Shown here: positions 35,791 to 59,860 of the stretch, piece after piece
Numbering within the stretch: the stretch's first letter is position 1
Layout: each line of letters starts with the position of its first letter
NCBI GenBank assembly: GCA_049515895.1
Contig: JBEKTQ010000018.1
Span: 1-60,277 of the forward strand
Direction of reading: 5' to 3'
DNA from: Candidatus Bathyarchaeia archaeon
Lineage (GTDB): Archaea; Thermoproteota; Bathyarchaeia; Bathyarchaeales; Bathycorpusculaceae
DNA: 60,277 nucleotides
The notes under the pieces: generated by a model
The model's database searches: none
The model's input: the letters and a program-made list of their open reading frames with translations, nothing else
What the model was told of the DNA's origin: nothing
Program-made: the position numbers and the translations under genes

Positions 35791-35960
35791 ACACAAAGGT
35801 CGAAAAAGTCACAGGCAGTCCGGAAAAGACTGGAAAAGTCGGGAAGGAACGGGAAACAACGCGGCGGAACAGGAGAAAACGGGAAAAAACGCAACCTGCA
35901 AACGGCTCAAGTCATAATTCAAGAAAGCAACCCAAGGCACAAACAACAAAAAATCCACAT
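35791..35960 (-). repeat. Leader plus 10-bp array element, copy 1
   Basis: Reverse complement TTTGTTGTTTGTGCCTTGGGTTGCTTTCTTG..GCAGGTTGCG followed by about 9 units in 10-nt phase. Confidence 0.8.
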
Positions 35961-36128
35961 AAACCTGAAACCTGAAATGCGATTAGAAACAAAACCCTTT
36001 TTTAAGTATTCAGCCTTCAAAAGGCACATTGCTTTTTTGATATAGAGTCTATATATATTATTAAGTGAATCTCTATAGGAACCTTCAGCATTAGGCTTAT
36101 TGAACATGTGGAAGAGGTGACAAAAAGA

Positions 36129-38309: not shown

Positions 38310-38319
38310 ATTGTTCACC

Positions 38320-39102: not shown

Positions 39103-39163
39103 TTTTATCGGGTCTCCTCAAAGTCCATGCAGCGAATTATCTTTTGTGTTTCCATCATTGCTT

Positions 39164-40039: not shown

Positions 40040-40051
40040 TTCAAGCCTCCA

Positions 40052-40984: not shown

Positions 40985-41038
40985 CTTTCGAAGCCTCTTG
41001 AATTGAAGTTAAAAAAATGAGGGGTAGCGAGTTAGATT

Positions 41039-42370
41039 TTAGCTTATGTATGGTGTTCCATTTGGTGATGTTATCAGTTTAAGCGATGCGTTGCAATTGG
41101 CGATGATGTTAGTTGGCAATGGAACGTAGCCTATGCCGATGCCTGCATTTTGGCCGCTGTTAATGATCCATGATAGGAAGTTGACGACTGCTGCGCCTGT
41201 AGCTTGATCGCTCTGTTGCTGGTAGACCAAAGCATATGTCATCGTCACGATTGGGTAGATTGTAGTGTCAGTTTGGTCGTTGTAGATGTTATCAATAATT
41301 GAAACAGTTGTCCATTGAGCATTTCCGGCTGGAAGACCGGCATTTGCTCCTGCTTGAAGTGCTGCTGCCATGTTGGTGATGTTGGCTAGGATGTAGTTGC
41401 CTGTTCCGTTTTGGACTGCACCATAGGCGAGGTTGGTTTGTCCAGGGTTGTCGAGTATATAGGAGATTTCAAGTGGACCAATGGCGCCGTTGTTCGCTGC
41501 AACGTTCTGTGCTACTCCTGCGTTTTTGTTTCCTTCGAGTTCATTTGGAAGGGATGGCCAGATGTTGGGGCTTGTGCTCGGGCCTCCGACTTGTGTTGCC
41601 CAGTCTGAGCTTGTCTTGTAGAGGAAGTCTGTGAAGGCAAACATTGTTCCACTCCCGTCAGATCGGTGGACACAAATAATTGCGGTATGCGGCAGTTGAG
41701 CTTGAACCGTAGCGGATTGTAGACCCACTATGGCTGGGTCGTCCCAATAGGTTATCTTGCCTATGAAAATGTCTCCCAGGACTGCTCCGCTGAAGTTAAG
41801 TCCGTTTTGGCAGACTGTACCGTTGAGGAGTTTAAGGTTGTATGCTGGCACGACGCCGCTGGCGGAGATGGGTACGGTTATTGCTGTTGTGCCTGTGGGA
41901 AGACCTTGGTACTGGGCTGCGGTCATTGGGGCGTCGGTTTCTCCGATTTGGTACAGTTTCTGCTGGAAGTTGCTTATGCCTGTGCCGCTGCCTACTGGGT
42001 TATAGTTGATTGTGATCTGTGACTGGTAAGTGGCATATTGTCCTATCCAAGTTTGCATCAATGGGTAGACCAGTGTGCCGCCACCGGCTGTTATGGTTGC
42101 GGATGCTAACGGTGCGGGTGTTGGAGTTGGTGTTGGTACAGGCGCAGGAGACGGAGTTGGAGAGGGAGTTGGTGCGGCTGTGGGTATGGCTGTTGGACTG
42201 GCAGTTGGATGTGTCGAAGCGGTAGGTGTAGGCGTTGGGGTTGCTGTTGGCGCTGGACTTGGAGTCGGGCTTGTAGAGTTACTTCCCGAAATGTAGGGGT
42301 AAGCGAATATGGTTCCGACGATGACTACAAGAACTATCACGGCGATAGCTATTATGTATGTAGTTTTCAT
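41039..42370 (-). CDS. pstS: Phosphate-binding protein with a TM anchor and PT linker
   Basis: [28 protein letters not shown]. Confidence 0.95.
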
Positions 42371-44533: not shown

Positions 44534-44609
44534 TGGTAGCCCGGGAGAGACTCGAACTCTCGTCAAGGGCTCCAGAGGCCCCTATGCTTGACCGCTACAC
44601 CACCGGGCT
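44534..44609 (-). tRNA. tRNA-Gln(CUG), intron-less, CCA encoded
   Basis: AGCCCGG/CCGGGCT acceptor (A1-U72), anticodon arm GGGGC-CTCTGGA-GCCCT, GTTCGAGTC T-loop. Confidence 0.97.
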
Positions 44610-44873: not shown

Positions 44874-45905
44874 TCAGCTTCCCTTCTTTGATGGTTGCTC
44901 AAACTGATAGAACGGGGTTCGTCTGAAGTTTTCGCCTAGTCGTTCGGTGACGGAGGCAACGAGGAATGGGAAAATCATTAAGGCTTCTCCGATGACCATA
45001 ACGTGGGCTGCTTCGCCCTTCATTTTTCCCCAGCTTACCGTCTCCTCCAGCGTTGAACCGGATAAGCCTCCTGTTTCAGGCCTATCCAGTGTGATGACGA
45101 TGCCGTAGTCGAGGCCTTTCTTGGATGCTACAGCGGATGATTGGATTGTGTTGCGTGGAACTCCACCGCCGATAACTATCATTCCGTTTTTAGGCGACTT
45201 GCTGCATATTCCGCAGATCGTCGGCACGTCCTTGAAGGCGTCCAGCAGCAGAACGGGTTTAGGCTTGTCCTGCGCGGCGTGAAGCCAATGGATAAACCCG
45301 AATTCTGAGTCTCGCGCGGAAGGGAGGAAAATCGGCACGTTTTCTTCGTATGCCGCTCGAAGGATTGAGTTTTTGTCGGTGAGTCGCTTGCCTATTTCGT
45401 GGGTGAACTCGTTTGAAGCTAAGCTTTCGCCCTTGCGTTCGGCTGCGATTTCATCGTAGATCTCTGACATTTTAACGTCTAATCTGACGTAGTCTTCTTC
45501 GGGGACAAGGATGTCGTAGATGCGGAAGAGATGGTACTTGTAAAGTTCCGTGTCGTCTATTGCCCATTTTGCTTTGTAGTGGTGTCCGCCGACGGCTTCG
45601 ATGGCGTCGTGAACCATGCATGCGCCGGTGCTTACGATGACGTCGACGAGGCGTTTCCTTATCAAATCCGTTATAAGCGTGCGCATACCCGCTGGGACCA
45701 CGGCTCCTGAGAGCGCCAAAAAGACGGTGCATCCACTGTCTCTGAGCATTTTCTCGTAGATGTCGCATGCCGTCGCCAACCTGCCCGCGCCCAGGGAGCC
45801 TGATTTTTTGAATTGCTGCATCAGTTGGTCAACCGTTTGTGCGCCGCCCACCTTTATGTGCTCGACAGGATTCCGCAGGTAATCTTTCCTCTCCATCAAA
45901 GCCAC
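44874..45905 (-). CDS. dys: Deoxyhypusine synthase
   Basis: LSGAVVPAGMR, STGA..HD, GGGVPRN, GGLSGS..E..SWGK with the active Lys. Confidence 0.93.
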   Translation of the reverse strand: MALMERKDYLRNPVEHIKVGGAQTVDQLMQQFKKSGSLGAGRLATACDIYEKMLRDSGCTVFLALSGAVVPAGMRTLITDLIRKRLVDVIVSTGACMVHDAIEAVGGHHYKAKWAIDDTELYKYHLFRIYDILVPEEDYVRLDVKMSEIYDEIAAERKGESLASNEFTHEIGKRLTDKNSILRAAYEENVPIFLPSARDSEFGFIHWLHAAQDKPKPVLLLDAFKDVPTICGICSKSPKNGMIVIGGGVPRNTIQSSAVASKKGLDYGIVITLDRPETGGLSGSTLEETVSWGKMKGEAAHVMVIGEALMIFPFLVASVTERLGENFRRTPFYQFEQPSKKGS

Positions 45906-45990: not shown

Positions 45991-46210
45991 GCGCGGTGGG
46001 AAATTCGGGCAAATTTGTTGTTTGTGTTTTGGGTTGCTTTCTTGTGGAGAAGCTTGGATCAGCTGCAGGTTGCGTCTCCTATCGTCTCCTAAAGTCTCCT
46101 ATCGTCCGCCATCGTCTGCCAAAGTCTCCCAAAGTCCGCCATCGTCTGGTAAAGTCTCCTAAAGTCCTAACGTCAACAAAATTTAATAGGCGGCCACTAC
46201 CGTCAAAATA
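45991..46210 (+). repeat. Leader plus 10-bp array element, copy 2 (GTC-type array)
   Basis: Leader to GCAGGTTGCG (46065-46074), then 10 units nnnGTCnnnn at 46071-46170 and a degenerate tail. Confidence 0.9.
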
Positions 46211-46220
46211 GGCTGATTCA

Positions 46221-46425
46221 AAAAACATCTAGAAAGATCGCAGGGTGCGCAGTCTGCAGAAATGTGAGTTTGTGAGGGTTTAGGATTTTTCGCATTAGAA
46301 TTTTGTTCTTTGCGTTTTGGATTGCCCCCTTGGAATGGGGTTTGTATTGGCTGCAGGTTGCGGTTAAAAATCTCCCTAAGTCTCCATAATTCTCCCAAAA
46401 TCTCCTTAAATCTCCCCAAAAATCT
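46221..46425 (+). repeat. Leader plus 10-bp array element, copy 3 (long leader, TCTC-type array)
   Basis: CTGCAGAAATG..GGATTTTTCGC..GCAGGTTGCG (46353-46362), then 5-6 AAATCTCCnn-like units. Confidence 0.9.
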
Positions 46426-46510
46426 GTGGCTTAACCTTAGATAACCGGAAATTCTCGTGAAAAGAGATGCCTAACTAATCGGTTTAGAGTCAGCATGGAA
46501 GGGCACGTAT

Positions 46511-46759
46511 CTACAATTCTTGGTTGCGGAGTCTTTCCCGTATTTCTTTTAGCCGATTCTCGGAAAGGTAGTATTTCCCGTTGACTTCGACAAAAATTCC
46601 GCTTTTGCCCAGCCGCCTCTGCATCGCATCCTTAAACCTCGGCCCAAGACCCAGCTCCTCGGGAGTCATGGCTTTTTCCGGGCTGGTGGCTCCTTTGCTC
46701 CGAAATTTCGCTACAAGCTCGACCAGCCATCTGCGTACTTCTTGTCTTTGCCTAAACAT
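46511..46759 (-). CDS. Small winged-helix-like protein
   Basis: KFRSKGATSPEKAMTPEELGL..RLGKSGIFVEVNGKYYLSE. Confidence 0.75.
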   Translation of the reverse strand: MFRQRQEVRRWLVELVAKFRSKGATSPEKAMTPEELGLGPRFKDAMQRRLGKSGIFVEVNGKYYLSENRLKEIRERLRNQEL

Positions 46760-46776
46760 GCAGGTACGCGCTTAGC

Positions 46777-47178
46777 CTATGTTTTTAGGAGCCCCAAAAT
46801 GCCGCCTATTAACCCGAGGATTAAGCCGATTAGCCAGCCGCTGCCGACGAAGATGCTTAGCACCGAAAAGATTATGACGATTGTGCCGCCGACTTGCGTC
46901 ACGCCTGTGTACATCAAGTACGCTCCAACCATGATTATGACGGCGAACACGATTGCGACAACTCCCAGCAAAGTGAACGCGATCCCCGCAAACAATCTAT
47001 GCCGAACCTCATCTGAGTACGCGAAATTAAGAATATCGTGGCCCAAAATAATCCTAACTATCCCCCGTAAAAGAATCAGAATGCCGCCCACCAGAGAAAG
47101 CGCGAAACCGACGACTGCCCGCTTGACCTTAGGTTGCTGAATGCTTGGCTGCTGTGTGTTTGGTTGCTGCAAAAACAA
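46777..47178 (-). CDS. Small multi-TM membrane protein
   Basis: FALSLVGGILILL..FSVLSIFVGSGWLIGLILGLIGGILG. Confidence 0.75.
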   Translation of the reverse strand: MFLQQPNTQQPSIQQPKVKRAVVGFALSLVGGILILLRGIVRIILGHDILNFAYSDEVRHRLFAGIAFTLLGVVAIVFAVIIMVGAYLMYTGVTQVGGTIVIIFSVLSIFVGSGWLIGLILGLIGGILGLLKT

Positions 47179-47341
47179 TTTTCCTCTAAAAATGGGTTAA
47201 ACAAGCGGCAATTTAAACTTTCCCAGAGCACAAACAGCCCCGCCTACCTTTGACAGGCATTTAGCTTTACTTACGCAAATTTCTTTAGTCAAAGCAAACA
47301 AACTAGAAACTCGCAGAAAGTCCACACTGGAGAAGCTTGAG

Positions 47342-49168
47342 ACGGCTAAAATCAAGAACGCTTCAATTTTTCTGCTGGTCTTCCTACTTTGCTCTCCCAT
47401 TTTTGCCGGTTTACAGGTGCATGCGCAATCGGAGCCGACGCTTGCCGAAACAATCAACAATATCCTAACCAACATTAACCTCGCAAACGTTAGTCCGCAG
47501 TGGGGCACCGTCTACAGCCAAATATTCTGCTTGACAAATCAGAGCATTTTTGACACCCTCATACAAGAAGCAGTCAACCAGAGCGATTGGCAAGACGCAG
47601 TTTGGGTTGCAAGGCTTGCGGAGCTCAACGGTTTCAATTCACCAATTTTAACTGATTGCTTGGCAACCGCGTTGGAAAATATGCCGATGTGCGGAAGTTT
47701 GCCAGCAACGTGTAACACTGCAAATCAAACGGTTACTTCGTATCCGCCTGAGGTGTTTTGCGTTTATGACAGGTATATGGTCAACGCTTACCGCTACGCG
47801 CAAGAGCTTGGTGTTCTAGGCTGGAACATGACTCGCGCCTTCACAGATTTCGCTGATGCATACGTTTCTTCGCCAAAGGGGTCTGGGAGTCGAAGCGGGG
47901 AAATGTTTTGGATAAATCCGGCAGCGAACTTTTCAGCTTCCTACACTGGCCGTTATTATGATGAGTACGCGGAAACCTTAGGCATGTTTTTGGAGTTTGC
48001 CTTGAATGGTGTTAGAAGCAACATGACGGTAAACAGCTTGTCGTTGAACGCTACGTCGTTTATGGATAACATGTGGGGTGCTGTGCAAGATCTTTGGAAC
48101 GGCGATTTTTATGACTACAATAACATGGGAATTGGGCTGGCTCGAGCGTTCGACATCGTTGAGTGTGAAATGGGTAATTTCGCGCAGATAGCCGAAGAGT
48201 ACCAGAACTACCGTGGACTCCTGCCATATTTCAGCAACGTAATAACCGACTTGGAGTACACGTGTTTGACTTCGGGCTGGGACTCGCCGATCTGGGCTTC
48301 ACCTGGAGCAATACAGCACGCTAATGACAATTCTCAAGTACGCTTGCCTGAAACACTAGCAGCCCTAATCGCAATTCAAATGCTTTATCCCCAATTCAAC
48401 GCAAGCATGCAAACTAACTTTCAATCAATGCTTCAAACCGGTTGGCAAGGACTAGTAAACAGCACCCTATACAGCAACGGCCAGTTCCAGTTTACCGCGC
48501 AGAACTCCACAACAGCTCTGCCAGAAGCTTACTCAGATGATGCTTCCATGCTTGGCGCCATGACGCTTTTCTTAGATGGGATCATTCCGCAAACTGGAAG
48601 CTTATCAATAGCGGCAAGCAACGAGCGGTACGAAGATTACCAAACATGCTTTCCCATTAGTCAATGGCAATTTAACTACCAAAACCAATCAATAAGAATA
48701 CCCGTTATGGCAGGAACTTTGATATTTACCTTCGGTTCCCAACCTGTGAGCCAGCTGTTTCCGTCAAACGGAGTTTATGAAATTCAATTTTCACCCGACT
48801 GGAACAGCATTGCTTCAGTGACTAAAGTCGCAGACATAACAGTGCCTCAGCTAAAGCCTGCAACCCTGCAAACACAGATACGACCAACTCCAACACCCAC
48901 ATCAACTTCAACCCCATCGCCTGAGGCAACTTCCGCCGTCTCTATTACGCCAACCCTGACCAGCTCACCAACGGGGGAGTCTCCTGCGATCTTCCACGAT
49001 TTGTTGTTTATCGCCGCAGTGCTTACCCCAACACTACTCGTGTTCTTGGCGGTTACGTTTTACATAAAAAAGAAAAAACCACTTGCAACACCTGTGCAGG
49101 TTAAGGTTATGGGTTCCTCTCGAAAAGTAAAATATGTTTATTCATTTATTGAATTATTCAGTAGGTGA
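47342..49168 (+). CDS. Secreted/surface protein with a PT linker and C-terminal TM anchor (possible glycoside-hydrolase-like fold)
   Basis: In-frame signal peptide KIKNASIFLLVFLLCSPIFAGLQVHA upstream of track start 47417; RYYDEYAETL, VECEMG; TM segment plus KKKK. Confidence 0.7.
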   Translation, partial: TAKIKNASIFLLVFLLCSPIFAGLQVHAQSEPTLAETINNILTNINLANVSPQWGTVYSQIFCLTNQSIFDTLIQEAVNQSDWQDAVWVARLAELNGFNSPILTDCLATALENMPMCGSLPATCNTANQTVTSYPPEVFCVYDRYMVNAYRYAQELGVLGWNMTRAFTDFADAYVSSPKGSGSRSGEMFWINPAANFSASYTGRYYDEYAETLGMFLEFALNGVRSNMTVNSLSLNATSFMDNMWGAVQDLWNGDFYDYNNMGIGLARAFDIVECEMGNFAQIAEEYQNYRGLLPYFSNVITDLEYTCLTSGWDSPIWASPGAIQHANDNSQVRLPETLAALIAIQMLYPQFNASMQTNFQSMLQTGWQGLVNSTLYSNGQFQFTAQNSTTALPEAYSDDASMLGAMTLFLDGIIPQTGSLSIAASNERYEDYQTCFPISQWQFNYQNQSIRIPVMAGTLIFTFGSQPVSQLFPSNGVYEIQFSPDWNSIASVTKVADITVPQLKPATLQTQIRPTPTPTSTSTPSPEATSAVSITPTLTSSPTGESPAIFHDLLFIAAVLTPTLLVFLAVTFYIKKKKPLATPVQVKVMGSSRKVKYVYSFIELFSR

Positions 49169-49251
49169 ATATAGTGAGATTCATTGATCGGGAGATGAAG
49201 ATCAAGGAGCTCTAACCAAAAGAAATTATAAAAAATTTGTCAACAATGCAA

Positions 49252-49420
49252 AGCACCTCGTCACAGTTAGGTGCTCGTTATCTCTGTGACTGTTGGAGAA
49301 TGATAACAGAGCACAGAATCTAAAGGCAAGGAGAGGTTTTTTGGTGGTTTGATTGGAATTGGAAATTCAGTTGGGTTGTAGGAAAATTGCAATTTAAGGG
49401 GGTGGGGCGGAATTGAAGGC
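49252..49420 (+). repeat. Overlapping double-hairpin element, copy 1
   Basis: AGCACCT..AGGTGCT and GTGCTC-GTTATC..GATAACAGAGCAC, then a G/T-rich tail shared with 54315-54455. Confidence 0.85.
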
Positions 49421-49520
49421 GGGTAGTTTGGGTTTAGAATCGTTAAAACTTGATTTATTGGGCTTTTCTTGCGTTTGGATATTGAAGGTCAGGTTGTGCG
49501 TGATTAGGTTTTAACCCTTG

Positions 49521-50804
49521 TTAGATGTATTGTGTCGGTGCAAATAGTATGGTTGTGTTTCCAATTTTTTCAATATGCCAATAGTCTTTTGTGGCTATGA
49601 GTGCCCGAGTGGGCTTGTAGGTTTCTATGAAACTTCGAAAGCTTCTGGAAATTTTGGGTTTCTGGAATGCTTGGTATTTCGATTCAACGGGAACGATTCC
49701 GTTGTCGATGTGGAGGATGAAATCAACTTCTGCCTTGTTTGTAGTTCTCCAGTAGTTGATGGTTTCATCTGAAAAGCTGTTTCTAAGGGCAAGGAGAACT
49801 TGATTTTCCATGATTTGTCCTGCGTCGGTTCTTTGCTCTAGTGAGTTGAAGTTGTTAAGTATGTGATTTCGGAGTCCTATGTCGTGAAAGTATACTTTTG
49901 GGTTTTTCTTCAGTTCGGTGAGTGGATTTTTGTGAAATGGTTGGATGAGTTGGGTTATGTAGGTTTCTTGGAGCATGGAGATTGTTTTCTTTGTTTCTTT
50001 GTAGTAGCTTTGGCATGCATTGCTAGTTTCATTGTAGTTTAGTATTTTTCCTGTTAGTGCTGCTAAAGTTCTGACGATGCACCGGTACTTTGAGGGGTCA
50101 CTAACTTTGAGGAATTCGACTCCGTCTTTGGATACGTAGGTGTCGTAGATGTTTTTGAGGATGATTCTTTTTGTTTCGATATCTGGCGCGGTCACGACGG
50201 CTGGGTATCCTCCGAAGGTTAAAAACTCGTTTAGAAGCGGAGCAAATTCGCGGTGGAAAATTTCTGCCGTTTCTATCGTGAGTGAGATACCTTTGAGAAG
50301 AAACTCTCTTATTTGGGTGTTCTTTTCTAGGTAAATATTGGCTAGGCGGGGGTCTTTAGTTACTAAAAACTCGTGGAAGTTGAAAGGGAACAGTTCAAAG
50401 AAGAAAACTCTTCCAACAAGGAATTTAGCCATGTCTCCACAAAGTTCTAGCGATGAGCTACCGGTTGCAATGAACTTGACGTTTTCGAAGGTGTCATAAA
50501 GTAGTTTCAGAGTTTTACCGGAGTTTTTTACGTATTGATATTCGTCCATGAGGAAATAGTGACGATCTTGGCTAGTAATGTAGCTTTTGATATATTCTTT
50601 CGGGTTGGCTTCGAAAGGTTCCAATACGTCTGGGTCTTCAAAATCTAGGAAAATTACTTTTTTCCCAGACAGGGTTCTTTGAAGTTGTCTGAGGATAGTT
50701 GTTTTTCCTGATTGCCTCGGGCCTTTTATGGCGTATGCTTCCCTACGGTTTATCCACTTGTTCAGGTTTAACAGGATATCTCTTGGATAGCTTTCCATTG
50801 TCAT
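49521..50804 (-). CDS. AAA+ ATPase (AAA_14 plus DUF4143, C-terminal PD-(D/E)xK-like domain)
   Basis: GPRQSGKTT, MDEYQ, ATGSSS, FGGYP, KVYFHDIG, EVDF..PVESK. Confidence 0.92.
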   Translation of the reverse strand: MTMESYPRDILLNLNKWINRREAYAIKGPRQSGKTTILRQLQRTLSGKKVIFLDFEDPDVLEPFEANPKEYIKSYITSQDRHYFLMDEYQYVKNSGKTLKLLYDTFENVKFIATGSSSLELCGDMAKFLVGRVFFFELFPFNFHEFLVTKDPRLANIYLEKNTQIREFLLKGISLTIETAEIFHREFAPLLNEFLTFGGYPAVVTAPDIETKRIILKNIYDTYVSKDGVEFLKVSDPSKYRCIVRTLAALTGKILNYNETSNACQSYYKETKKTISMLQETYITQLIQPFHKNPLTELKKNPKVYFHDIGLRNHILNNFNSLEQRTDAGQIMENQVLLALRNSFSDETINYWRTTNKAEVDFILHIDNGIVPVESKYQAFQKPKISRSFRSFIETYKPTRALIATKDYWHIEKIGNTTILFAPTQYI

Positions 50805-50938
50805 GTCTCTGCCGTTTTAACAATAGAATTGTTAACAACTTTTAAATTTTACTATTGTTAACGCTAACGGGGGAAAGAGTTTTGTTTTGTATAATTTTTA
50901 TATCAATTGATTATTGTTTAACTAATTGGGGTATCGAT

Positions 50939-51148
50939 ATGGTTAAGGTGAAACTTTCCTCTAAGTTTCAGGTTGTAATTCCTCGAGAAGTCAGGGAAAA
51001 GCTAAACTTGAAGCCTGGCGAGGAAATCGCGATGATAGAAAAATCAGGTGTAATATGCTTAGTGCCGCAAAAGCCCATAAAGCAAATGCGGGGTTTCGTC
51101 AAAGGCGGAAATACTCAAAATATCCGTGAAGAAGAGGATCGCTTTTGA
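50939..51148 (+). CDS. AbrB/MazE-type antitoxin (orphan)
   Basis: VKLSSKFQVVIPREVREKLNLKPGEEI. Confidence 0.9.
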   Translation: MVKVKLSSKFQVVIPREVREKLNLKPGEEIAMIEKSGVICLVPQKPIKQMRGFVKGGNTQNIREEEDRF

Positions 51149-51312
51149 CACCCAGAGATTACCTTGAGAAAAGAGTTAAGGCGAAGAAACTAAAGCAGGT
51201 CATAAAACAGACTGACGCGTTTAGGAACGAGTCGGGCAAAAAACTCGGAATCACTAAATCTTCCGCAGATACAATTAGGGAAGATCGCGATCATGGCCAT
51301 TGAAGCCGTCCG
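51145..51312 (+). pseudogene. C-terminal fragment of a further antitoxin plus the first codons of its toxin
   Basis: ..SSADTIREDRDHGH* overlapped by TTG AAG CCG, then truncated. Confidence 0.55.
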
Positions 51313-51382
51313 TATGTTCAGAAAGGCGCTGATCAAAATAATAGCACCATATATTAGAATCAACGAACAGCATTTCGCTCAC
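51275..51382 (-). pseudogene. Truncated PIN/VapC toxin (N-terminus only)
   Basis: MSEMLFVDSNIWCYYFDQRLSEH, then runs into the opposing fragment. Confidence 0.75.
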
Positions 51383-51383
51383 A

Positions 51384-51629
51384 TCATTTTTCTACAGTTT
51401 CCCACATTTTCTTCAGCTTCAGCGGATCTGTGGCGGGCGCGCCTTCCTTAATGCAGCCCTCCATTTCCTTAATGAATTCTTCAGCTGAAATTGGAGGCAT
51501 AATAACTATGTTTTCATTCTCTATTTTCAAGCGAGCTTTTCCTCCAACTTGCAACCCGACTTTGTCTCGAACCGCTTTGGGAATTTGAACTCGCCCTCTG
51601 TGGTCAACAGTTACTTCTTCCGTATTCAT
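51384..51629 (-). CDS. AbrB/MazE-type antitoxin
   Basis: VTVDHRGRVQIPKAVRDKVGL. Confidence 0.9.
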   Translation of the reverse strand: MNTEEVTVDHRGRVQIPKAVRDKVGLQVGGKARLKIENENIVIMPPISAEEFIKEMEGCIKEGAPATDPLKLKKMWETVEK

Positions 51630-51753
51630 TTTTTCCCACCAGAAAATTTCCGCCGTGGGAATATAATCTTTCCGACTAATAAATCAAATCACCTTGGCTG
51701 AACTTAGTTGAACTCTGCAAATGGTTGTTGTTGGCGCACGCGAAAATTTGGTG

Positions 51754-52158
51754 TCAAAGGAGGATTTGAAGGCCCGCTTCCCTGAAGTGGTTGTCAAACG
51801 TGAATGCGTTAGGGATTGAAAGATCTTTTATCAAAGCAAAACTTGTGCAGTCTGTGAAACTCCATGATTTACCATCAGATCGTTTGAACATATCAAGTGC
51901 TTTTTCAAATAAGTCATCTTCCACCCAAAATACGCGAACACTCTTGCTTTTCATGATTTTATTAATAAAGGCGGAGGCTGAAGAAGGGCTTCTTCTTGAC
52001 CACAATAAAGTAATTGTTTCGTCCAGTATGTAATCGGTGGTTACAGAAATACCGTATTTTCCTGAGGCTATAATGGAAAGGAACTTGCATGCTGCTTCAT
52101 GATTTACATCGTCTTCTACTTCGAGGGCGTACCAGGCGCTTGTATCTACGAATATCAA
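51754..52158 (-). CDS. vapC: PIN-domain VapC toxin
   Basis: IFVDTSAW, ILDET, SFTDCTSF, FTFDNHF. Confidence 0.93.
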   Translation of the reverse strand: MIFVDTSAWYALEVEDDVNHEAACKFLSIIASGKYGISVTTDYILDETITLLWSRRSPSSASAFINKIMKSKSVRVFWVEDDLFEKALDMFKRSDGKSWSFTDCTSFALIKDLSIPNAFTFDNHFREAGLQILL

Positions 52159-52391
52159 GTGTTTTCACCATACAGATACTTGTCGTGTTCTTCGGAGCCG
52201 CGATCTCTTTTTCCAGTTCGTCTGGAACTGGGTGGGCTTGTAAAAATAGGGTCATTCGGGTTCACGTTGCCTTCGACGGTGGTTTTGATGGCCTCACGTA
52301 GGACTTCCTTGATGCTTTTTGAGTTTCTTTTTGCGTATTCTTCGAGGAGTTTGTGCTCCGCTTCTGTAAGAGTTGTTTGCACGACTTTCAT
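52155..52391 (-). CDS. CopG/RHH antitoxin
   Basis: VVQTTLTEAEHKLLEEYAKRNSKSIKEVLREAI..EEHDKYLYG; 4-nt overlap with the toxin. Confidence 0.88.
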   Translation of the reverse strand: MKVVQTTLTEAEHKLLEEYAKRNSKSIKEVLREAIKTTVEGNVNPNDPIFTSPPSSRRTGKRDRGSEEHDKYLYGENT

Positions 52392-52846
52392 GTTACATCA
52401 TGAATGAAAGATGAGTGATGAAAAATATAATCTTTCCATTATTCTGTAAAAAAGAAACAGAAATTGGAATAGAAAAGAAATTATCTTTTAGAGTAAATAG
52501 CTCTAATGCCGCCAAGAACGAATCCTAAAATAAAATAAAAACAGCCATCCCAACCAAAAAATATAGAGAAAATATTGCTCCAAAACCGCTAGCCACAGTC
52601 AACCACATAGCCAATTTATCGCTTCGTTTTCTCATTGGTGTAAATCATCAAAAGAAAAATAATTTACAAACAGTTTCATCTCAAAAAGTGATAAATTAGC
52701 TCTTTTAGGAGTTCTGCGTGCTTCTCGTCACCCGACTTAAGTTCTTTCTCGGTGTGAAAAACCGTCAACTGAATTTCGGGAAGCCCTGCTTTAGAAAGCG
52801 GCAATACCTAAGAACTTCCCAGCAGTAACCTACAAAACCGAATCAA

Positions 52847-52922
52847 TGGAGCTAGAGGCTGGGAGTTTAACCCAGCGTATATGGCAATGCTCGCCACGGT
52901 CTATTCGCTCGACCACTCTCGC
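52847..52922 (-). ncRNA. tRNA-Cys-like element (non-canonical or pseudo-tRNA)
   Basis: 76-nt cloverleaf GCGAGAG/CTCTAGC, GTC/GAC, GTGGC-GAGCATT-GCCAT, GCTGGG-TTAAACT-CCCAGC, U73-CCA; TATA-like CTTAATTT about 25 nt upstream. Confidence 0.7.
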
Positions 52923-53100
52923 AAAAATCGATGTGGCATACAGTAAATTAAGTATTATTCCCGCATAGAATTATTCTTACATGGCTCCCAAAATGAACTT
53001 CGTAGAACCTAGTAAACAGACGATTTTCGACATGGATACCGAAACAGACGAAGATTTGACAGAACCGCTAATAGCTAAATAAAATGGCAAAAAAGCGTCG

Positions 53101-53250
53101 GCGCGCGTGGAAAATCCGGCAAATTTGTTGTTTGTGTTTTGGGTTGCTTTTCTTGTTTTCAGCTTGGATTGGCTGCAGGTTGCGTCTTAAAATCTCTAGA
53201 AATCTCTGTAATTCTCCCAAAATCTCTTTAAATCTCCCGAAATCTCCTCA
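53101..53250 (+). repeat. Leader plus 10-bp array element, copy 4 (TCTC-type array)
   Basis: Leader nearly identical to 45991-46074, GCAGGTTGCG at 53175-53184, six AATCTCnnnA-like units. Confidence 0.9.
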
Positions 53251-53278
53251 ACCCAGAATGGCGTCATCGATGGATAAG

Positions 53279-53345
53279 TGAGGCCGAGAAGTGGCAGGAT
53301 AAAATTCAAGGGGCAAAAGTGTTCTTGAAAAAAGTTTGCAATTAA
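53279..53345 (+). pseudogene. 3' gene-end remnant, duplicated at 54249-54313
   Basis: EAEKWQDKIQGAKVFLKKVCN* versus EAEKW*DKIPEAKAFLKKVCE*. Confidence 0.6.
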
Positions 53346-53456
53346 AGCGCCTTACGCTTGAACCAGCTCAAACCAAAAACAAATCCAAAATGATCACAGC
53401 AGTATCAATTGCGGATAAATGCACTGGGTTTAGTTAATAGTGTCTTTCAGCCAAGA

Positions 53457-53858
53457 TTACTGGAAAATCAATTTTAAGGAGTCAAGTTTGCCTAAGTGTT
53501 TCTGGTCGTTTGAGTAAACTTCTGTGATGCCTAGCCGCATCATCAAAGCAAGGTTCACGCCATCGTTGAAGTCAATTTGTTCCGCAGACATGTTGTTAGC
53601 CCCCATCAGCAAATCATCCCCACTTAATTCGATGATATCAAGAGTTTGATAGGACATTATCTTCTCAAGTGTAGGCTTGATGTCTCCTTGCCTGCCCATA
53701 GCTTCTAGCACCCAAGCCACTTCACACAAAACCAATGTAGATGTTATGGCTGCTTCACCTTCTTCAATGCGCTCAAGAATATTCTTAGCTATTTTCCCAA
53801 AACGCGGGTGCGCTGTAAGGGTGTAGATAAACACGTTAGTATCTACGAACCGGGTCAC
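53457..53858 (-). CDS. vapC: PIN-domain VapC toxin
   Basis: RFVDTNVF, VLCEV, DFNDG, YSNDQKH. Confidence 0.93.
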   Translation of the reverse strand: MTRFVDTNVFIYTLTAHPRFGKIAKNILERIEEGEAAITSTLVLCEVAWVLEAMGRQGDIKPTLEKIMSYQTLDIIELSGDDLLMGANNMSAEQIDFNDGVNLALMMRLGITEVYSNDQKHLGKLDSLKLIFQ

Positions 53859-54106
53859 TGGAAATCCTCAACCAGCTTCTTTCGAATGTATTCTCGCGCT
53901 AACTGTTTTGGTTCATCAACGGGGTTAATCAGGTTCACAGAGCCGTATAACGCCTCTGTAGGCTTTTTGTGGGTTTCCACCGGCACTAGGCAGATACGTC
54001 CCATGTATTCTGTAATGATAAGTCGTATGCCTTCATGTACACCATATTTTTCGCGCAACCGCTTAGGCAAAACAATTCGTCCATACTTACCAACTTCAAC
54101 AGACAC
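53855..54106 (-). CDS. AbrB/MazE-type antitoxin
   Basis: VEVGKYGRIVLPKRLREKYG; GGTGG SD before GTG at 54106. Confidence 0.9.
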   Translation of the reverse strand: MSVEVGKYGRIVLPKRLREKYGVHEGIRLIITEYMGRICLVPVETHKKPTEALYGSVNLINPVDEPKQLAREYIRKKLVEDFQ

Positions 54107-54314
54107 GCTAAACCACCGACAAACTATCACATAAACGACAAATATAAATTTTTTGCCAAGAAAATCAATTTACGACAAAATTGAAAATCAATTAGTAACA
54201 TACCTTGGTAATATAGTGCGTGAGGTGTCAGTTGCCCCGTGGAGCAGTGAAGCGGAGAAGTGGTAGGATAAGATTCCAGAGGCAAAAGCGTTCTTGAAAA
54301 AAGTTTGCGAGTGA

Positions 54315-54455
54315 AGCGCCTCGTCACGGGTAGGTGCTCGTTATCTCCGTGGCTGTTGGAGAATGATAACGGGCATAGGCGGGGGTTGAGGTTGGTTAAT
54401 TGGTTTAATTGGAATTGAGTGGATTTGCAGGAAAGTTACAATTTTTGGGGGGGCT
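54315..54455 (+). repeat. Overlapping double-hairpin element, copy 2
   Basis: AGCGCCT..AGGTGCT and GTGCTCGTTATCTCC..GGAGAATGATAACGGGCAT. Confidence 0.85.
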
Positions 54456-54535
54456 GGCTTTAAATCTGGTTTTTTTGTAATTTGCGTAAAAAAGTTTATG
54501 TATGCATTTGGTATCTGTTGTATACGGTGGTTGTG

Positions 54536-54856
54536 TTGACACTTAAACCGTTAGCCGTAAGAGTTCCTGCTGAATTAGAGAAAGAGATTATTGAAATCGT
54601 AAAACAGGAAAAATTAGACAAAGCCACGGTTGTCAGAAACCTTCTTGAAGTGGGCATAAATGAATGGAGAAAGCAAACTGCCTTAGAGTTTTTGCAGAAG
54701 GGAAAAGTAACTTTCGCCAAGGCCGCAGAGATTGCAAATCTTTCACTTTGGGAGTTTTCTGATTTGATTAAGCAGCGCAATATTGAATGGGTCAGATTTG
54801 CGCCTGAAGATGTTGAGAAAGAGTTCAGGGAAGCGTCGGCGGCGAAGCGCAAGTGA
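54536..54856 (+). CDS. UPF0175-family antitoxin
   Basis: GKVTFAKAAEIANLSLWEFSDLIKQRNI. Confidence 0.88.
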   Translation: MTLKPLAVRVPAELEKEIIEIVKQEKLDKATVVRNLLEVGINEWRKQTALEFLQKGKVTFAKAAEIANLSLWEFSDLIKQRNIEWVRFAPEDVEKEFREASAAKRK

Positions 54857-55362
54857 AGCCGTTAGTTTTCAATTCTACACCCTTGATCTACTTATCCAAA
54901 GCTGGATTGAGCGGGATTATTGAGCGTTTGAATACAGAAAAGTTGACGTGCCCTTTGGTTAAGTTTGAGGTTGTAGACAAGGGGAAACAAAAAGGAGTCC
55001 CTGACGCTATTGCTCTGGAGAAATTGTTTGATAATGGAGTTTTCAAGTTACGTGAACCTAAAGACAAGCTATTTCTTTCGCGCTTGTCTGAGACGCATGG
55101 GCTTCATATTGCAGATGCTGAGGTTTTGGCTCTCGCCAAAGAGTGTGATGGTTTCGCCGTTATTGATGATGAGGTTGCCAGGAAAACAGCGAGAGTGTAC
55201 GGAGTCGAATATGTTGGCACGCCGTATATTTTGGAGAGGGCTGTTTTTGAAGGGCTCATTTCGAAAGCAGAAGCTAAACAGGCCGTGAATGACATGGTTT
55301 CATCTGGCTGGCGGTGCAGCGTCGAGAGCTATGCGAAGATTATTGCGTTATTAGAAAAATAG
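54853..55362 (+). CDS. DUF3368/PIN-domain toxin-like protein
   Basis: VFNSTPLIYL, LHIADAEVLALA, IDDEVARKTA..VGT. Confidence 0.88.
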   Translation: MKPLVFNSTPLIYLSKAGLSGIIERLNTEKLTCPLVKFEVVDKGKQKGVPDAIALEKLFDNGVFKLREPKDKLFLSRLSETHGLHIADAEVLALAKECDGFAVIDDEVARKTARVYGVEYVGTPYILERAVFEGLISKAEAKQAVNDMVSSGWRCSVESYAKIIALLEK

Positions 55363-55733
55363 CTATTTTTTGAGAGGGTTGTGATTTCGCATGATAGAGT
55401 TTGCCGCAGGTTGAAAGGTTAAAGGGTAACCCGTTTGGATTTTGCGGTTTAATTTTCACTTGGTTTCCTTAAGGTTGTTGTGAGGTTTTTTCCCGTTTAC
55501 TTAACCGTCAAAGTCGTCACCATACAATTGGTGAGGAGAAACTATACATAAGAATTAACGAGGAACTGATACAAAAGAATAAGGAAAGATAAGGTAGCTT
55601 GTTTTGTGTCTTATTTGCAGGTAGCTATCTAGTTAAGTCTACCATTTTCTTAATTGTTACTACGTTTATGCGGGGTCCAAACGTTTTCCCTTCTTGGAAA
55701 CCGGAACAATCCAAATCAAAGGAGAGATGAAAA

Positions 55734-55970
55734 TATGGGAAGAGAGTTCACTCAAGAGCATGTAATGAAAATTTGTTTACCGCCAGAACTCTATCTTGCG
55801 GTGATTAAATTTCAGGCGCAAAAGGAAATAGGCAAATCCTACGCTGGACTGCTCCTAATAACCAAAGCAGCATATCAAGAACAGCTAATCTCCTGAGAGG
55901 CGTACGAGAAATATGTGTATCGTTACTCACGCAAGCTGGTTCCAGAAGAGCAACCCAAAAAAATTAATTG
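55734..55970 (+). pseudogene. Interrupted hypothetical gene
   Basis: GGAG SD; MGREFTQEHVMK..QEQLIS*EAYEKYVYRYSRKLVPEEQPKK continues in frame past TGA at 55894. Confidence 0.6.
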
Positions 55971-56042
55971 AGGAGCAAAAGAGAAACAGAAATTGGAAAG
56001 AAAGATAGAACGTCGATTTGCTTCTTGGTGAATTGCGGAACA

Positions 56043-56483
56043 TTACTTATCAGGTGAAAGAAACTCCTGTTCAGTCTGGACAGTTACTTCTTTTATTTTT
56101 GCAAAGTCAATATCATCGCTGATTACAATTGAGTTGTTGTAATATGCGGTTGCTGATATGAACGCGTCAGCTATCGGTATACTGTATTTTCCCTTGAATT
56201 CACTTGCCTTGGCCGCTATTTTTTCATCTATCACATATTTCTTTATGGCTGCGGCGTATCGGACGTCTGCAATTCGTGCTTTAGCTAGGTCAACTCTGTT
56301 TTCATGCGAATATTTGTAATAGATTTCCGTTAAAGTGACTACGCTTATACCTGCCTCTATGTCTCCATTTTCGATGAGTAACATTATTCTTTGAACATTT
56401 TCCCAACCTGCCTCCGATGCAAAGAGCTTAATGAGAGGCTTAGTATCCAGTATAAGCTTAGGCTTCTGTGACTCGATTGTCAA
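56043..56483 (-). CDS. vapC: PIN-domain VapC toxin
   Basis: LILDTKPL, TLTEI, PIADAFI, ISDDIDF. Confidence 0.92.
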   Translation of the reverse strand: MTIESQKPKLILDTKPLIKLFASEAGWENVQRIMLLIENGDIEAGISVVTLTEIYYKYSHENRVDLAKARIADVRYAAAIKKYVIDEKIAAKASEFKGKYSIPIADAFISATAYYNNSIVISDDIDFAKIKEVTVQTEQEFLSPDK

Positions 56484-56724
56484 ATTCCCTATCCCACTCT
56501 TTTCGCGTTGCTTCTAATTCCTTTGAGGGTTTTCTGTTTGCAAACAATTCTTTGTCGATGCCGGCAAGCTTAGATAGTTTGGAAACTCGAATCAATCTAA
56601 CAGTGTTATCTTCGCTGACGACCAAAAATTTTTCGCCCTTGACTATCTTCAGCTGTTTTCTTATTTTTGAAGGAAGGGTTATCTGCCCTTTAGAGGTAAC
56701 AGTAACACTTTCTTCTTCCAACAA
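56458..56724 (-). CDS. AbrB/MazE-type antitoxin
   Basis: VTVTSKGQITLPSKIRKQLKI. Confidence 0.92.
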   Translation of the reverse strand: MLEEESVTVTSKGQITLPSKIRKQLKIVKGEKFLVVSEDNTVRLIRVSKLSKLAGIDKELFANRKPSKELEATRKEWDREFDNRVTEA

Positions 56725-56883
56725 TAGTTTCGCCTTACAATCATAGTTTATTCCTTACACTTATAAAATTAGCGGAAGAAAAATTCTGATCTAGTTTTTT
56801 GCTTTTTGACGGTTTTGTTTTCTGTTTCGACTTGGGCTTCTGTTTCCGTTTGTTTGGTTTGAAAAGTTTTGTAAGTTGTTTTG

Positions 56884-57040
56884 GCGCGGTGTAAAATCGG
56901 CAAATTTGTTCTTTGTGTTTTAGGTTGGTTTCTTGAAAAGGGGCTTAAAGCGTTTGCAACTATCATCTAGAATCATCTAAAAACATCTGTAAACATCTAT
57001 AAAGATCTAGAAAAATCTAGAAACATCTAAAAAAATCGCG
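56884..57040 (+). repeat. Leader plus 10-bp array element, copy 5 (ATCT-type array)
   Basis: GCGCGGTG..GGCAAATTTGTT..TTTGTGTTTT leader, then 8 units nAnnATCnnn at 56961-57040. Confidence 0.88.
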
Positions 57041-57290
57041 GGGCGTTGCCTGCAGAAATGCGGGTTGGTGCTGGTCTTGGATTTTTCGCGGCAGAATTTT
57101 TTTCTTTGTTTTGGGTTGGTTTTTTGGTTTGGGGCTTGGTTTGGTTGCAGGTTGCGGTTTAAAAAGTCTAAATTCGGCGTAAAAAGTCTACTAAAGTCTA
57201 CTAACGTCAATAGAAGTCAATAGTCGTCTGCCAAAGTCAATAGTCGTCTAAAAAAGGCCACCAACGTCAATTAACGCAACTAAAAGTCAA
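57031..57290 (+). repeat. Leader plus 10-bp array element, copy 6 (long leader, GTC-type array)
   Basis: Leader homologous to 46221-46362, GCAGGTTGCG at 57147-57156, about 13 units at 57161-57290. Confidence 0.9.
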
Positions 57291-57482
57291 GACTGATGAG
57301 GATTAACGGCGTAAAACGGTAGAAGATCTTCCCTTATTCTCTCTAAATCTGCTCAAAATCGCTGGTTCAATCTTAGATAGCCCAAAGTTGCCAACAAAGG
57401 TGCCTAAGCAATCGGTTACAGCTCAGAGATGTCGTCGAAAGGTTGCTGACCCCGCTTTCTTGGCGCGCCATGGTTAAGGGCT

Positions 57483-58489: not shown

Positions 58490-59860
58490 TCATGCGTTGT
58501 CAGGTTTTCGTCTTAAACGTCTGACGGCTATAACTGTGAAAACTGAAATGACTTCGGCACCGGCTATGCCAACGGCAAGCACAGACCCTGATGACGTTGC
58601 TAACGACGTTGAAGGTAATAAGAATTGTACTGTCACTTGTGAACCTCCGGCTACTAGATTTGCGTCGAAGTTCGTTGTGTACCACACGTAGAAGTTATTG
58701 GCGTCTTGCGTGTAGCCCTGGTTAAGAGCCTTCTGGCCATCTATGTATACGACTGGGTTTATCCCGTAGGAAATGGCGTTTTTCGGAATAGTCATATTGC
58801 CAAGGCCTGCCGTTCCGTTGGGTCCTGTTATTTTGAAGGAAACTGTTGTTATGGTGGGTTTGTTTGATGTGATTGTGGCGTTGGATATCTGTGAACTGGT
58901 TACGTTGCCGCTGATGGCAAGATCAACTATGGCACCACTACCTGTTGTCACTGGGACAGTTTTTGTTGAAGTAGTTGGAGTAGGTGATGGCGTTATTGTC
59001 GGTGTTGGGGTTGGGGTGAGAGTTGCTATTGGGGTTTGAGTTGGAGTAACTGTAGGGGATGGAGTAAGAATTGGAGTGGGAGTTGGCGTTGGAGATGGCG
59101 ATGGAGTAGGAGTAGCTGCGGATGTTGGAGTTGGTGTTGGCGAGGAGCTGGGAGTCTGGGTTGGAGTAGCCGTAGGAGTTGGGGTTAGAGTTGGAGTTGG
59201 TTTGGGAGTTGCCGAAGGAGTTGGAGTAGGTGTAGGAGTGGGAGAGTGGGAGTTGGAGTCGGTGTCGGAGTGGGAGTTGGGGTTGGTTTGGGAGTTGGTG
59301 TTGGTGTTGGAGTTGGGGTTGGGGTAGGAGTGGGAGTTGGGGTTGGTGTAGGAGTTGGAGTTGGAGAAGGAGTCGCAGTTGGTTTGGGAGTTGGTGTTGG
59401 TGTTGGAGTTGGTGTTGGGGTAGGAGTGGGAGTTGGGGTTGGTGTAGGAGTTGGTGTTGGAGTTGGGGTTGGTGTAGGAGTTGGAGTTGGAGAAGGAGTC
59501 GCAGTTGGTTTGGGAGTTGGTGTTGGTGTTGGAGTTGGTGTTGGGGTAGGAGTGGGAGTTGGGGTTGGTGTAGGAGTGGGAGTTGGAGTCGGTGTTGGTG
59601 TTGGAGTTGGTGTTGGCGAGGAGCTGGGAGTCTGGGTTGGAGTAGCCGTAGGAGTTGGGGTTAGAGTTGGAGTTGGTTTGGGAGTTGCCGAAGGAGTTGG
59701 AGTAGGTGTAGGAGTGGGAGGCCGTAGGAGTTGGAGCGGGTGTTGCCGCTGGTGCATCCGCACCAGTCACCGTAACAGTACCTGGCCTAACACCAATCGA
59801 GAAAGCGCATATCAATAATGAAATTAGAAATGCGATCGTTAGGATTTGAATTTTCTTCAT
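58490..59860 (-). CDS. Surface protein: signal peptide, long Pro/Thr repeat linker, C-terminal beta domain and TM anchor; linker partly read in a shifted frame
   Basis: [16 protein letters not shown] signal; [31 protein letters not shown]; two compensating frameshifts in the repeat. Confidence 0.8.
58975..59745 (-). repeat. Degenerate 6-bp (CCAACN) coding tandem repeat with internal longer duplications
   Basis: GGAGTT/GGTGTT/GGGGTT run; a ~120-bp block is duplicated 476 nt apart. Confidence 0.95.

Follow-up and report, generated by a model that had tools for sequence, protein, structure and literature searches.

What kind of element joins a conserved T/G-rich leader to a tract of 10-nt units in strict register, and what is it doing at dozens of sites in one archaeal chromosome? 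The question is raised by a 60,277-nt stretch of DNA from a Candidatus Bathyarchaeia archaeon (NCBI GenBank assembly GCA_049515895.1, contig JBEKTQ010000018.1, positions 1 to 60,277 of the forward strand), referred to here as the window, which holds six copies of such a leader-array element. An initial annotation, made from the letters alone, had described the six copies and put forward three candidate roles: histone-positioning or chromatin-boundary elements, centromere-like or iteron-like loading sites, and ends of a mobile element that builds a toxin-antitoxin island. We find that the element constitutes the upstream region in a multi-copy Bathyarchaeota family of genes for PhS018-like proteins, a link that the annotation missed because the key fact was not visible to its reader. 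By analogy with the bacterial regulator MraZ, we consider it fairly probable that the arrays are phased operator arrays for the cognate PhS018-like proteins, the whole element being the 5' control module of the gene family.

The element lies upstream of a multi-copy gene family

In its canonical form the unit runs from leader to array to gene. Upstream of 74 family genes from other genomes of the genus, taken from the match table solely for being full-length and free of stop codons, a leader match followed by a 10-nt array is present in 68 cases (64 at E<=0.001). The gene-linked arrays are in register from the last base of the leader and end at a median of ~21-22 nt before the start codon, and a GGAG/GGTG Shine-Dalgarno-like motif stands behind many of them. 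A leader match also adjoins every one of the 12 best gene matches. The gene is monocistronic; no conserved partner gene was seen beside it at 12 of 12 loci of ~3 kb, where the neighbours are unrelated.

The same arrangement is found in the window's own genome, an assembly of 3.18 Mb in 53 contigs. A profile built from the six window leaders and searched against all its contigs gives 71 matches at E<=0.001, the threshold at which leader matches were counted. The family profile finds three full-length genes and five remnants in this genome; all five remnants and two of the three intact genes lie directly behind one of the 71 leader matches, and the third intact gene has a GGTT array with a weak leader match. 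The intact genes are at C23 65318-65617, C7 175401-175688 and, on the minus strand, C7 83623-83943. Six of the 71 copies precede an open reading frame (ORF) that starts with a common short peptide, truncated in some cases.

The association extends to the genus and beyond. The genus-wide search covered 61 genomes, namely the window's genome and 60 others; no more than 66 leaders were scored per genome, and the leader figures are lower bounds. Gene and leader occur together in 35 genomes and are both absent from 20; six have the leader only and none has the gene only. Gene count and leader count per genome are correlated with a Spearman rho of 0.89, a value obtained from genomes that are kin and not independent samples, and statistics across genomes and paralogues are inflated in general by relatedness. 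Outside the genus, homologues were found in 7 of 149 class-level genomes searched; a single one of these seven belongs to another genus of the same family, four belong to other families of the order and two to other orders. Inspection by eye of these more distant homologues reveals a TATA-like motif, ~12 nt and then 3-10 units in 10-nt register, as at locus L103, where ten GAT(A/G) units were read by eye.

Multiple gene copies stand close to each other at two places in the genus. Three family genes lie in tandem at G012:C1:7626-10973 with a spacing of 1539 nt, and contig C6 of genome G059 has two equal-scoring gene copies ~22 kb apart, which suggests recent segmental duplication of whole units.

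Copy number and 10-nt periodicity

The 71 leader copies are spread over 28 of the 53 contigs, and the leader model matches 40 of the 60 other genomes of the genus, so that the element is by no means confined to the window contig. The periodicity that the initial annotation had proposed to check is evident: the mean lag-10 identity in the 80 nt behind the leader is 0.637 for the 71 copies, with 0.288 at lag 9 and 0.299 at lag 11, compared with a lag-10 mean of 0.256 (SD 0.058) in 5000 random 80-nt windows of the genome. The lag-10 identity is at least 0.43 in 69 of 71 copies and exceeds the 99.9th percentile of the controls in 32; two leader matches have no array. Conversely, of the 60 strongest 10-periodic tracts genome-wide, 59 are arrays of the leader-array kind, 57 with a leader match, one with a weak match (E 0.0019) and one without, the sixtieth being a T-rich low-complexity stretch. 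The single leaderless array lies at C15:70076-70204 on the minus strand and has ~12 units of the GTCAAC/GTCAAT type. About eight array types can be distinguished in this genome: ATCTC (14), GTCAAC (13), ATCT (9), A-rich GTCAA (9), GACYC (8), GTCTCC (7), GTT..CCC (6) and GGTT (3).

Leaders are far more numerous than genes. All six copies in the window and 63 of the 71 in the genome are solo, that is, gene-less, and intergenic. Across the 61 genomes there are at least 926 leader matches versus 142 gene matches, and leaders outnumber genes in 37 of the 41 leader-bearing genomes. An extra sample of 20 leader matches from nine other genomes was hand-picked from the top scores, gene presence not being a criterion; the lag-10 identity is at least 0.5 in 17 of the 20, and a gene stands behind three, two of these genes being broken. 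Because only these three of the 20 sampled matches precede a gene, gene-less modules are normal for the genus and not peculiar to the window's genome.

Regarding the assembly itself, rated 4.87% contaminated, contigs C48 and C50-C53 are short (2.7-3.7 kb), and their 55-60% G+C contrasts with 40-47% in the 48 others; rRNA pieces or contamination may account for them. A search for mcrA, intended to place the organism, found no such gene.

A 4-nt box and a looser spacer form the array unit

Each unit consists of a 4-nt box, in which G nearly always comes first, and ~6 looser bases, the last of which are frequently A-rich. Calculated over the gene-linked arrays with four or more units (57 of 68), the information at unit positions 1-10 is 1.93, 1.64, 1.54, 1.26, 0.93, 0.96, 1.03, 1.05, 1.22 and 1.39 bits. 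The boxes found across gene-linked units include GTCA, GTAA, GTAC, GTG(T/C), GACT, GACA, GATA, GGTA, GGGT, GCAA, AGCT and GTT, among others. The period is exactly 10 nt in all box types and species seen, and units of 9 or 11 nt are absent from well-kept arrays; because of this invariant period and of the box anatomy, recognition of duplex DNA is favoured. A second repeat regime, grown from an array unit, is seen upstream of the family gene at L051 (G056:C6:214413-215165), where a 10-nt array is followed by a perfect 6-nt microsatellite, GTTCCC repeated ~14 times, before a promoter-like segment.

The box class follows the tree of the adjacent genes' products. With 66 proteins and 30 classes, the tree requires 41 changes of box class; 200 shuffles of the labels gave 53.5 on average and never fewer than 50. 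Within a well-supported (starred) clade of proteins of 113 aa, GATA, GGTA and GGGT boxes each mark one subclade, two of these (GATA and GGGT) being starred as well, and the GTAC, GACA, GTG and GTT/GACT boxes each go with a protein clade of their own. Such agreement is necessary for a relation between reader and site, and is no proof of one.

A conserved leader with a candidate promoter

The most conserved part of the leader is a 24-nt T/G-rich box that ends in a T run, most of its positions being at least 90% conserved in 70 leaders from many species, whereas the proteins behind these leaders are only 37-64% identical. The leader has a strong T/G strand asymmetry, and its conserved box may be a terminator, an insulator or a site for a shared factor. 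A BRE/TATA-like AAAGCTTAAAT lies in the 3' third of 28 of 66 gene-linked leaders, at a distance of ~21 nt from the first box, and the same motif stands at the same distance in the out-of-genus homologues, as judged by eye or by a simple pattern. By the usual archaeal promoter consensus and spacing, the transcription start of TATA-bearing units would fall in the first box. The remaining 38 leaders have G-rich variants at that place, and eight of these have a TATA-like motif between array and gene. Subsets of leaders have additional motifs on the upstream side of the conserved box, namely TTGTAAAAAG in the 113-aa subfamily and, in about a dozen units, a purine-rich stretch resembling GAAGAAGAAC; they hint at extra, clade-specific control sites.

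It had been suggested that leaders and arrays are exchanged at their junction. This is borne out in part. Leader similarity tracks array type only loosely (identity of 0.70 within types and 0.65 between types), and the nearest leader shares the array type in 33 of 69 copies (~14% would be expected by chance, as estimated from type frequencies). Some exchange at the junction would fit these figures, and a short, highly conserved leader that has little phylogenetic signal would fit them equally well.

The encoded protein is a predicted PhS018-like barrel

The family proteins are ~92 aa long, with a single-chain, internally duplicated barrel as the predicted fold. Pfam gives no family at E<=1 for two members, and NCBIfam nothing above cut-off, TIGR01439 being reached at E 0.03 with 13.7-13.9 bits, below its cut-off of 28.3 bits. 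The family profile of 69 members has a sole significant match in the Protein Data Bank (PDB), which is 2GLW (PhS018), with E 2.6e-5 over profile positions 8-72. A fold predicted from a single sequence was poor (pLDDT 62.7) and was replaced by an AlphaFold model from the alignment (pLDDT 89.2), which exhibits a beta-beta-alpha-beta pattern twice. When this model is compared with representative structures in VIA-align, 2GLW comes first (Z 11.0, rmsd 2.1 A, 81 aligned residues), a DUF1905 protein second (Z 9.9), and generic RIFT-type barrels follow at Z 5-7. Foldseek also places 2GLW first (E 1.5e-4, TM 0.69), and then cryo-EM MraZ-promoter complexes at a TM of about 0.5. The residues R26, K30 and R59 are nearly invariant in the family.

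At least 984 homologues are found in public data at E<=1e-5. Those with names are almost all 'hypothetical', a few being labelled Candidatus Bathyarchaeota archaeon, and none of the listed matches has a Pfam domain; some members have automatically been named 'DNA-binding transcriptional regulator/antitoxin', and PF04014 appears on protein-atlas neighbours at a score of 0.85, which we take as a lead only. Judged by profile and predicted fold, the protein is a PhS018-like single-chain barrel, a putative remote relative of AbrB, MazE and MraZ that falls outside those families.

PhS018 of Pyrococcus horikoshii (2GLW) resembles the family in its length of 92 aa and its two-fold internal repeat, and is the best match of both the profile and the predicted fold. 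To our knowledge no function has been assigned to PhS018, and we know of no array before its gene. It is described as a highly two-fold-symmetric RIFT protein (PMC11258233), and as a protein predicted from an alignment to recognise DNA in the manner of AbrB-type proteins (PMC4333400). AbrB, MazE and SpoVT, together with Sso7c4, an archaeal AbrB-like chromatin protein, share with the family the barrel superfamily and a GR-x-x-IPK-like loop motif. These proteins are homodimers of ~50-aa domains with palindromic or loosely defined sites, whereas the family described here has one chain with two half-domains, no toxin partner gene and long direct-repeat arrays.

The six copies in the window

All six copies that the initial annotation had listed are present, and the profile gives exactly six matches on the window contig, five on the plus strand and one on the minus strand. 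The leaders are ~75-95 nt long and T/G-rich, and 6-14 array units start at the very next base:

45991..46073, plus strand: leader copy 1, with the T/G-rich conserved box and the 3' end GCAGGTTGC (profile match 46000-46073, E 9.8e-17)
46074..46163, plus strand: array 1, 9 units of 10 nt, box GTC(T/C)(C/G)C
46164..46285, plus strand: tail and linker joining module 1 to module 2; the same tail stands behind GTC-type arrays elsewhere
46286..46361, plus strand: leader copy 2, second module of a tandem pair (profile match 46294-46361, E 1.1e-13)
46362..46421, plus strand: array 2, 6 units, box (A/T)TCTCC
53101..53183, plus strand: leader copy 3 (profile match 53109-53183, E 5.7e-16)
53184..53253, plus strand: array 3, 7 units, box ATCTC
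53457-53858, minus strand: convergent PIN-domain gene downstream of array 3
56884..56964, plus strand: leader copy 4, with the variant 3' end GCAACTATC (profile match 56891-56960)
56965..57034, plus strand: array 4, 7 units, box ATCT
57035..57079, plus strand: linker to the following module
57080..57155, plus strand: leader copy 5 (profile match 57087-57155)
57156..57295, plus strand: array 5, 14 units, GTCT and GTCAAT boxes mixed
35891..35966, minus strand: leader copy 6, between an HtrA-like protease gene and an AbrB-PhoU gene (profile match 35962-35891)
35811..35890, minus strand: array 6, ~8 units of the GTTnnTnCCC type, drifting to GAC/GTC

The common leader end is GCAGGTTGCG in five copies, at 46065-46074, 46353-46362, 53175-53184, 57147-57156 and, on the minus strand, 35899-35890; in the copy at 56884 it is GCAACTATCA. 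The strict 10-nt register directly behind the leader is borne out by Tandem Repeats Finder, which reports a period of 10, 20 or 30 for all six copies; several arrays show a 20-nt super-period. Copies 1 and 2, like copies 4 and 5, form a tandem pair, and copies 2, 3 and 5 each face a convergent gene. The 3' side of array 1 degrades to GTCAAC-like units and reaches ~46181. The TATA-like motif is absent from its usual place in leader copy 1, and leader copy 4 retains CTTAAAG at the corresponding position. Array 6 is of the type that precedes an intact family gene on contig C23.

Phased operator arrays as the favoured reading

The closest known analogue is the box array of MraZ. A paper on MraZ reports that the protein binds GTG(G/T) boxes with 6-nt spacers before its own gene, cooperatively and with one subunit per box, and that the single-chain subunit reads its box through a beta-strand 'cradle' inserted into the major groove; binding drops stepwise with box mutation, spacing matters, the transcription start lies in box 1 and the protein represses its own operon (PMC12957436). 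The family described here resembles MraZ in two respects, being a predicted single-chain, internally duplicated small barrel related to AbrB, and having direct repeats of a G-first 4-nt box and 6 spacer nt directly before its own gene. It works alike, if this reading is correct, but falls outside MraZ on both sequence and genomic context. It is a Bathyarchaeota family without Pfam or significant sequence match, whereas MraZ belongs to PF02381; its protein has 92 aa instead of about 150 and is devoid of the helical oligomerisation parts of MraZ; its topology is predicted to be PhS018/RIFT-like, and not the swapped hairpin of MraZ. It is archaeal and has no dcw context, its arrays have 4-18 boxes versus 3-4 in MraZ, and it comprises many paralogues with different boxes, a conserved leader and greatly multiplied gene-less copies. 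Phased direct-repeat operators for a small beta-barrel regulator are, in principle, already known; what is new is the archaeal setting, the long arrays, the dozens of box specificities, the shared leader and the several-fold excess of gene-less modules. A search of full-text literature, of incomplete coverage and without supplements, found no description of such arrays or of a function for the family.

We propose that one protein molecule would dock per box. With boxes one helical turn apart, the molecules would lie on one face of the duplex, touch each other and bind cooperatively, as MraZ does on GTG(G/T)-N6. The bound proteins would control the adjacent promoter, i.e. exert autoregulation, and where AAAGCTTAAAT is present, transcription would begin within the first box, as it does in MraZ. 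Further upstream, the conserved T/G-rich box and the T run at its end may act as an insulator or terminate read-through. Solo modules would be extra binding sites in trans, with a regulon, decoy or architectural role, or inert copies spread by duplication or recombination. As the repeat is 10.0 bp and not ~10.5, a long filament would be expected to twist around the DNA or to overwind it. The initial annotation had proposed helically phased protein-binding tracts in general terms, and that part fits all the findings, although none of its three specific candidates is the best fit. The MraZ paper also likens MraZ to Arc, CopG and MetJ (PMC12957436).

Comparable small beta-strand readers exist elsewhere, and differ in fold and setting. 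The proteins of ParR/parC and omega/CopG systems polymerise cooperatively on 7-11-bp direct repeats before their own genes. These have a ribbon-helix-helix fold, act in plasmid partition or copy control and come with partner genes, whereas no such partners are found here.

Several observations weigh against the proposed operator function. MraZ chains (E 0.38-0.51) and AbrB chains (E 0.33-0.43) are not significant in the profile search of the PDB, and the predicted fold is that of the PhS018 (RIFT-like) barrel, whose DNA binding is itself a prediction. The co-variation of box and protein is equally expected from co-inheritance of a gene with its upstream DNA; the exact period of 10 in all unrelated box types and the same layout outside the genus are independent of this caveat. 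The TATA-like motif is limited to fewer than half of the gene-linked leaders (28/66) and to only 6 of the 71 copies of the window's genome, and in units that have it the array would be part of the transcript, which may leave room for an RNA-level reading. The window's genome has ~8 array types and three intact genes, and for at least 31 of its arrays (types ATCTC, ATCT and GACYC) no cognate gene is evident in that genome, GACT-type boxes being found with a particular protein clade in other species. Furthermore, the solo copies show no bias in orientation: on crude ORF-based gene calls, 31 downstream genes run in the same direction as the copy and 39 are convergent, and of the upstream genes 35 are co-directional and 35 divergent. 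Solo copies are therefore not simply promoters or operators of host genes. Nor was a shared downstream gene found behind the 71 copies, whose neighbours are diverse housekeeping or convergent genes. Because so many arrays have no evident cognate reader, the solo arrays may be trans-acting sites, decoys or relics, and this is the weakest part of the account.

An extension of the operator reading, which we regard as doubtful, is that of matched pairs of 'address and reader'. Paralogous barrels would each read a different 4-nt box, their arrays would be seeded at dozens of intergenic sites, and filaments of 50-140 bp would serve as architectural or insulating landmarks or drive array duplication, for instance by stalling forks at coated arrays. 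If true, this would be a selfish or chromosome-organising system of a kind undescribed in archaea, going beyond an autoregulatory operator. The operator reading would itself, if correct, provide a first function for the PhS018-like barrel family, namely the sequence-specific reading of phased boxes. It would mean that the MraZ way of reading DNA exists in archaea too and has there given rise to dozens of specificities; protein clades that differ in their boxes would constitute a data set for the recognition code of the barrel fold and a possible source of orthogonal repressor/operator pairs. The excess of gene-less modules suggests either extensive regulons or architectural sites, or else a new route of multiplication for regulatory DNA in uncultured Bathyarchaeota.

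Alternative explanations

Control could instead be exerted at the RNA level, a protein or another factor binding the boxes in a transcribed 5' leader and so setting the translation or stability of its own mRNA, with the solo copies as small RNAs or sponges. A start of transcription within the array, as implied where the TATA-like motif precedes the first box by 21 nt (28 of 66 gene-linked units), would suit such a mechanism, and so would the Shine-Dalgarno-like motif behind many arrays and the T/G strand asymmetry of the leader; in addition, RIFT-type barrels related to the model are found in proteins that handle RNA, namely the Upf1/Sen1 barrels and ribosomal proteins, which match the model at Z about 5 to 6.3. 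There is also a parallel in TRAP, which binds spaced triplets in the trp leader RNA, one subunit per box, with variable spacers. TRAP shares with the present element a short box regularly repeated in a 5' leader, but the spacing of our arrays is invariant at 10 nt, a period that fits the helical repeat of a duplex and is not required by flexible RNA. The leader has no conserved RNA structure, with 0 conserved pairs in 70 leaders (RNAalifold, leader strand as given), and Rfam at gathering thresholds gives no family in the whole window besides one tRNA (44537-44609, minus strand). The TATA-like motif, moreover, is kept in few of the copies of the window's genome. We therefore consider RNA-level control unlikely.

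A different rival dispenses with binding altogether and considers the element a non-autonomous repeat, MITE-like or made of 5'-region fragments spread by recombination, whose arrays are slippage products kept by descent. The large excess of leaders over genes, the patchy distribution in the genus, the frequent gene remnants, the random orientation and the intergenic positions are all in keeping with this proposition. Whole modules are also found repeatedly. The composite of ATCT module, linker and second module occurs at five loci (the window and contigs C7, C21, C23 and C27), the tail common to GTC-type arrays runs on into a degenerate leader and an ATCTC array, and copies of the same type keep the order of their unit variants, with 86-95% identity within the GTCTCC group; because this order is kept, whole modules must have been duplicated. 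However, more than 30 unrelated box types have the period of 10 in common, which slippage alone would not maintain, and it would not preserve four box positions while the spacers vary. The ends are ragged, similarity between copies starting from about -60 to -98 and ending at varying points, with no sharp boundary common to the copies; leaving aside extracts of tandem copies that overlap, identity between two distinct copies reaches 95% at best, which speaks against a recent burst; and no transposase or recombinase is found among the 30 window ORFs scanned, where the initial annotation had raised the prospect of a co-occurring recombinase. Its more specific proposal, that the copies are mobile-element ends building the toxin-antitoxin island, fits poorly with the copies that also lie beside housekeeping genes throughout the genome. 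A comparison with integron attC sites likewise gave no conserved pairing in the 70 leaders and no recombinase among the same ORFs. As an explanation of the element as a whole, we judge the repeat hypothesis distinctly unlikely; it concerns the spread of the array and not its existence, and can be compatible with the operator reading.

It can also be asked whether the shape of the DNA alone would suffice, phased A-tracts curving the DNA or positioning archaeal histones independently of the product of the adjacent gene. In many arrays, A-rich spacers and G/C-containing boxes do follow each other at exactly 10 bp along 50-140 bp, and a histone-fold protein is encoded in the window's genome, so that the arrays may have a side effect on chromatin. 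Yet the GACCC/GACTC and GTTnnTnCCC array types are not A-tract phased, and neither the near-invariant G at unit position 1, nor the strict attachment to one gene family and leader, nor the link between 4-nt box and protein clade is explained in this way. An intrinsic-shape origin is thus very unlikely, and histone positioning or a chromatin boundary, as first proposed, does not account for the boxes.

A role as centromeres or iterons of integrated plasmids or viruses, comparable to ParR/parC or Rep-iteron arrays, is extremely improbable: type II partition loci do have 10-11-bp direct repeats, or 20 bp of two half-repeats, before a small binding-protein gene, and several of our arrays have the 20-nt super-period, but no ParM/ParA-like or Rep-like partner stands beside the gene at 12 of 12 loci or among the window ORFs scanned, the sites number dozens per chromosome on 28 contigs, and the flanking genes are often housekeeping genes.

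Two further classes of repeat, which the initial annotation had already set aside, were dropped. The units are 10 nt long and contiguous, with no unique spacers, unlike CRISPR repeats, which measure about 20-50 nt and alternate with unique spacers of similar length; and 10 nt is no multiple of 3, the ORFs across the repeats having no family match, which disagrees with a coding repeat.

Neighbouring genes and other repeats in the window

Just downstream of copy 6 lies a different AbrB-type regulator (36498-37547, plus strand), a fusion of an N-terminal AbrB/MazE-type domain with PhoU domains. It adjoins a complete phosphate-uptake (pst) operon at 37662-42370 on the minus strand, which encodes PhoU, PstB, two permeases and PstS.

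The tRNA gene at 44537-44609 and a deoxyhypusine synthase gene at 44874-45905, both on the minus strand, directly precede the first element pair. The tRNA gene shows no sign of being an integration site, and no integrase is present among the window ORFs scanned. Between the two element pairs are a 583-aa ORF without family match (47417-49168) and an AAA_14/DUF4143 ATPase gene (49521-50804). The region 51754-56724 is dense in toxin-antitoxin-like pairs, namely PIN/DUF6290, PIN/MazE-like (twice) and UPF0175/DUF3368.

A repeat of another kind occupies 59004-59745, with ~42 tandem copies of an 18-nt unit and a 126-nt super-period. It lies within an ORF on the minus strand (58490-59860) of 456 aa without Pfam match, which probably encodes a repetitive low-complexity protein.

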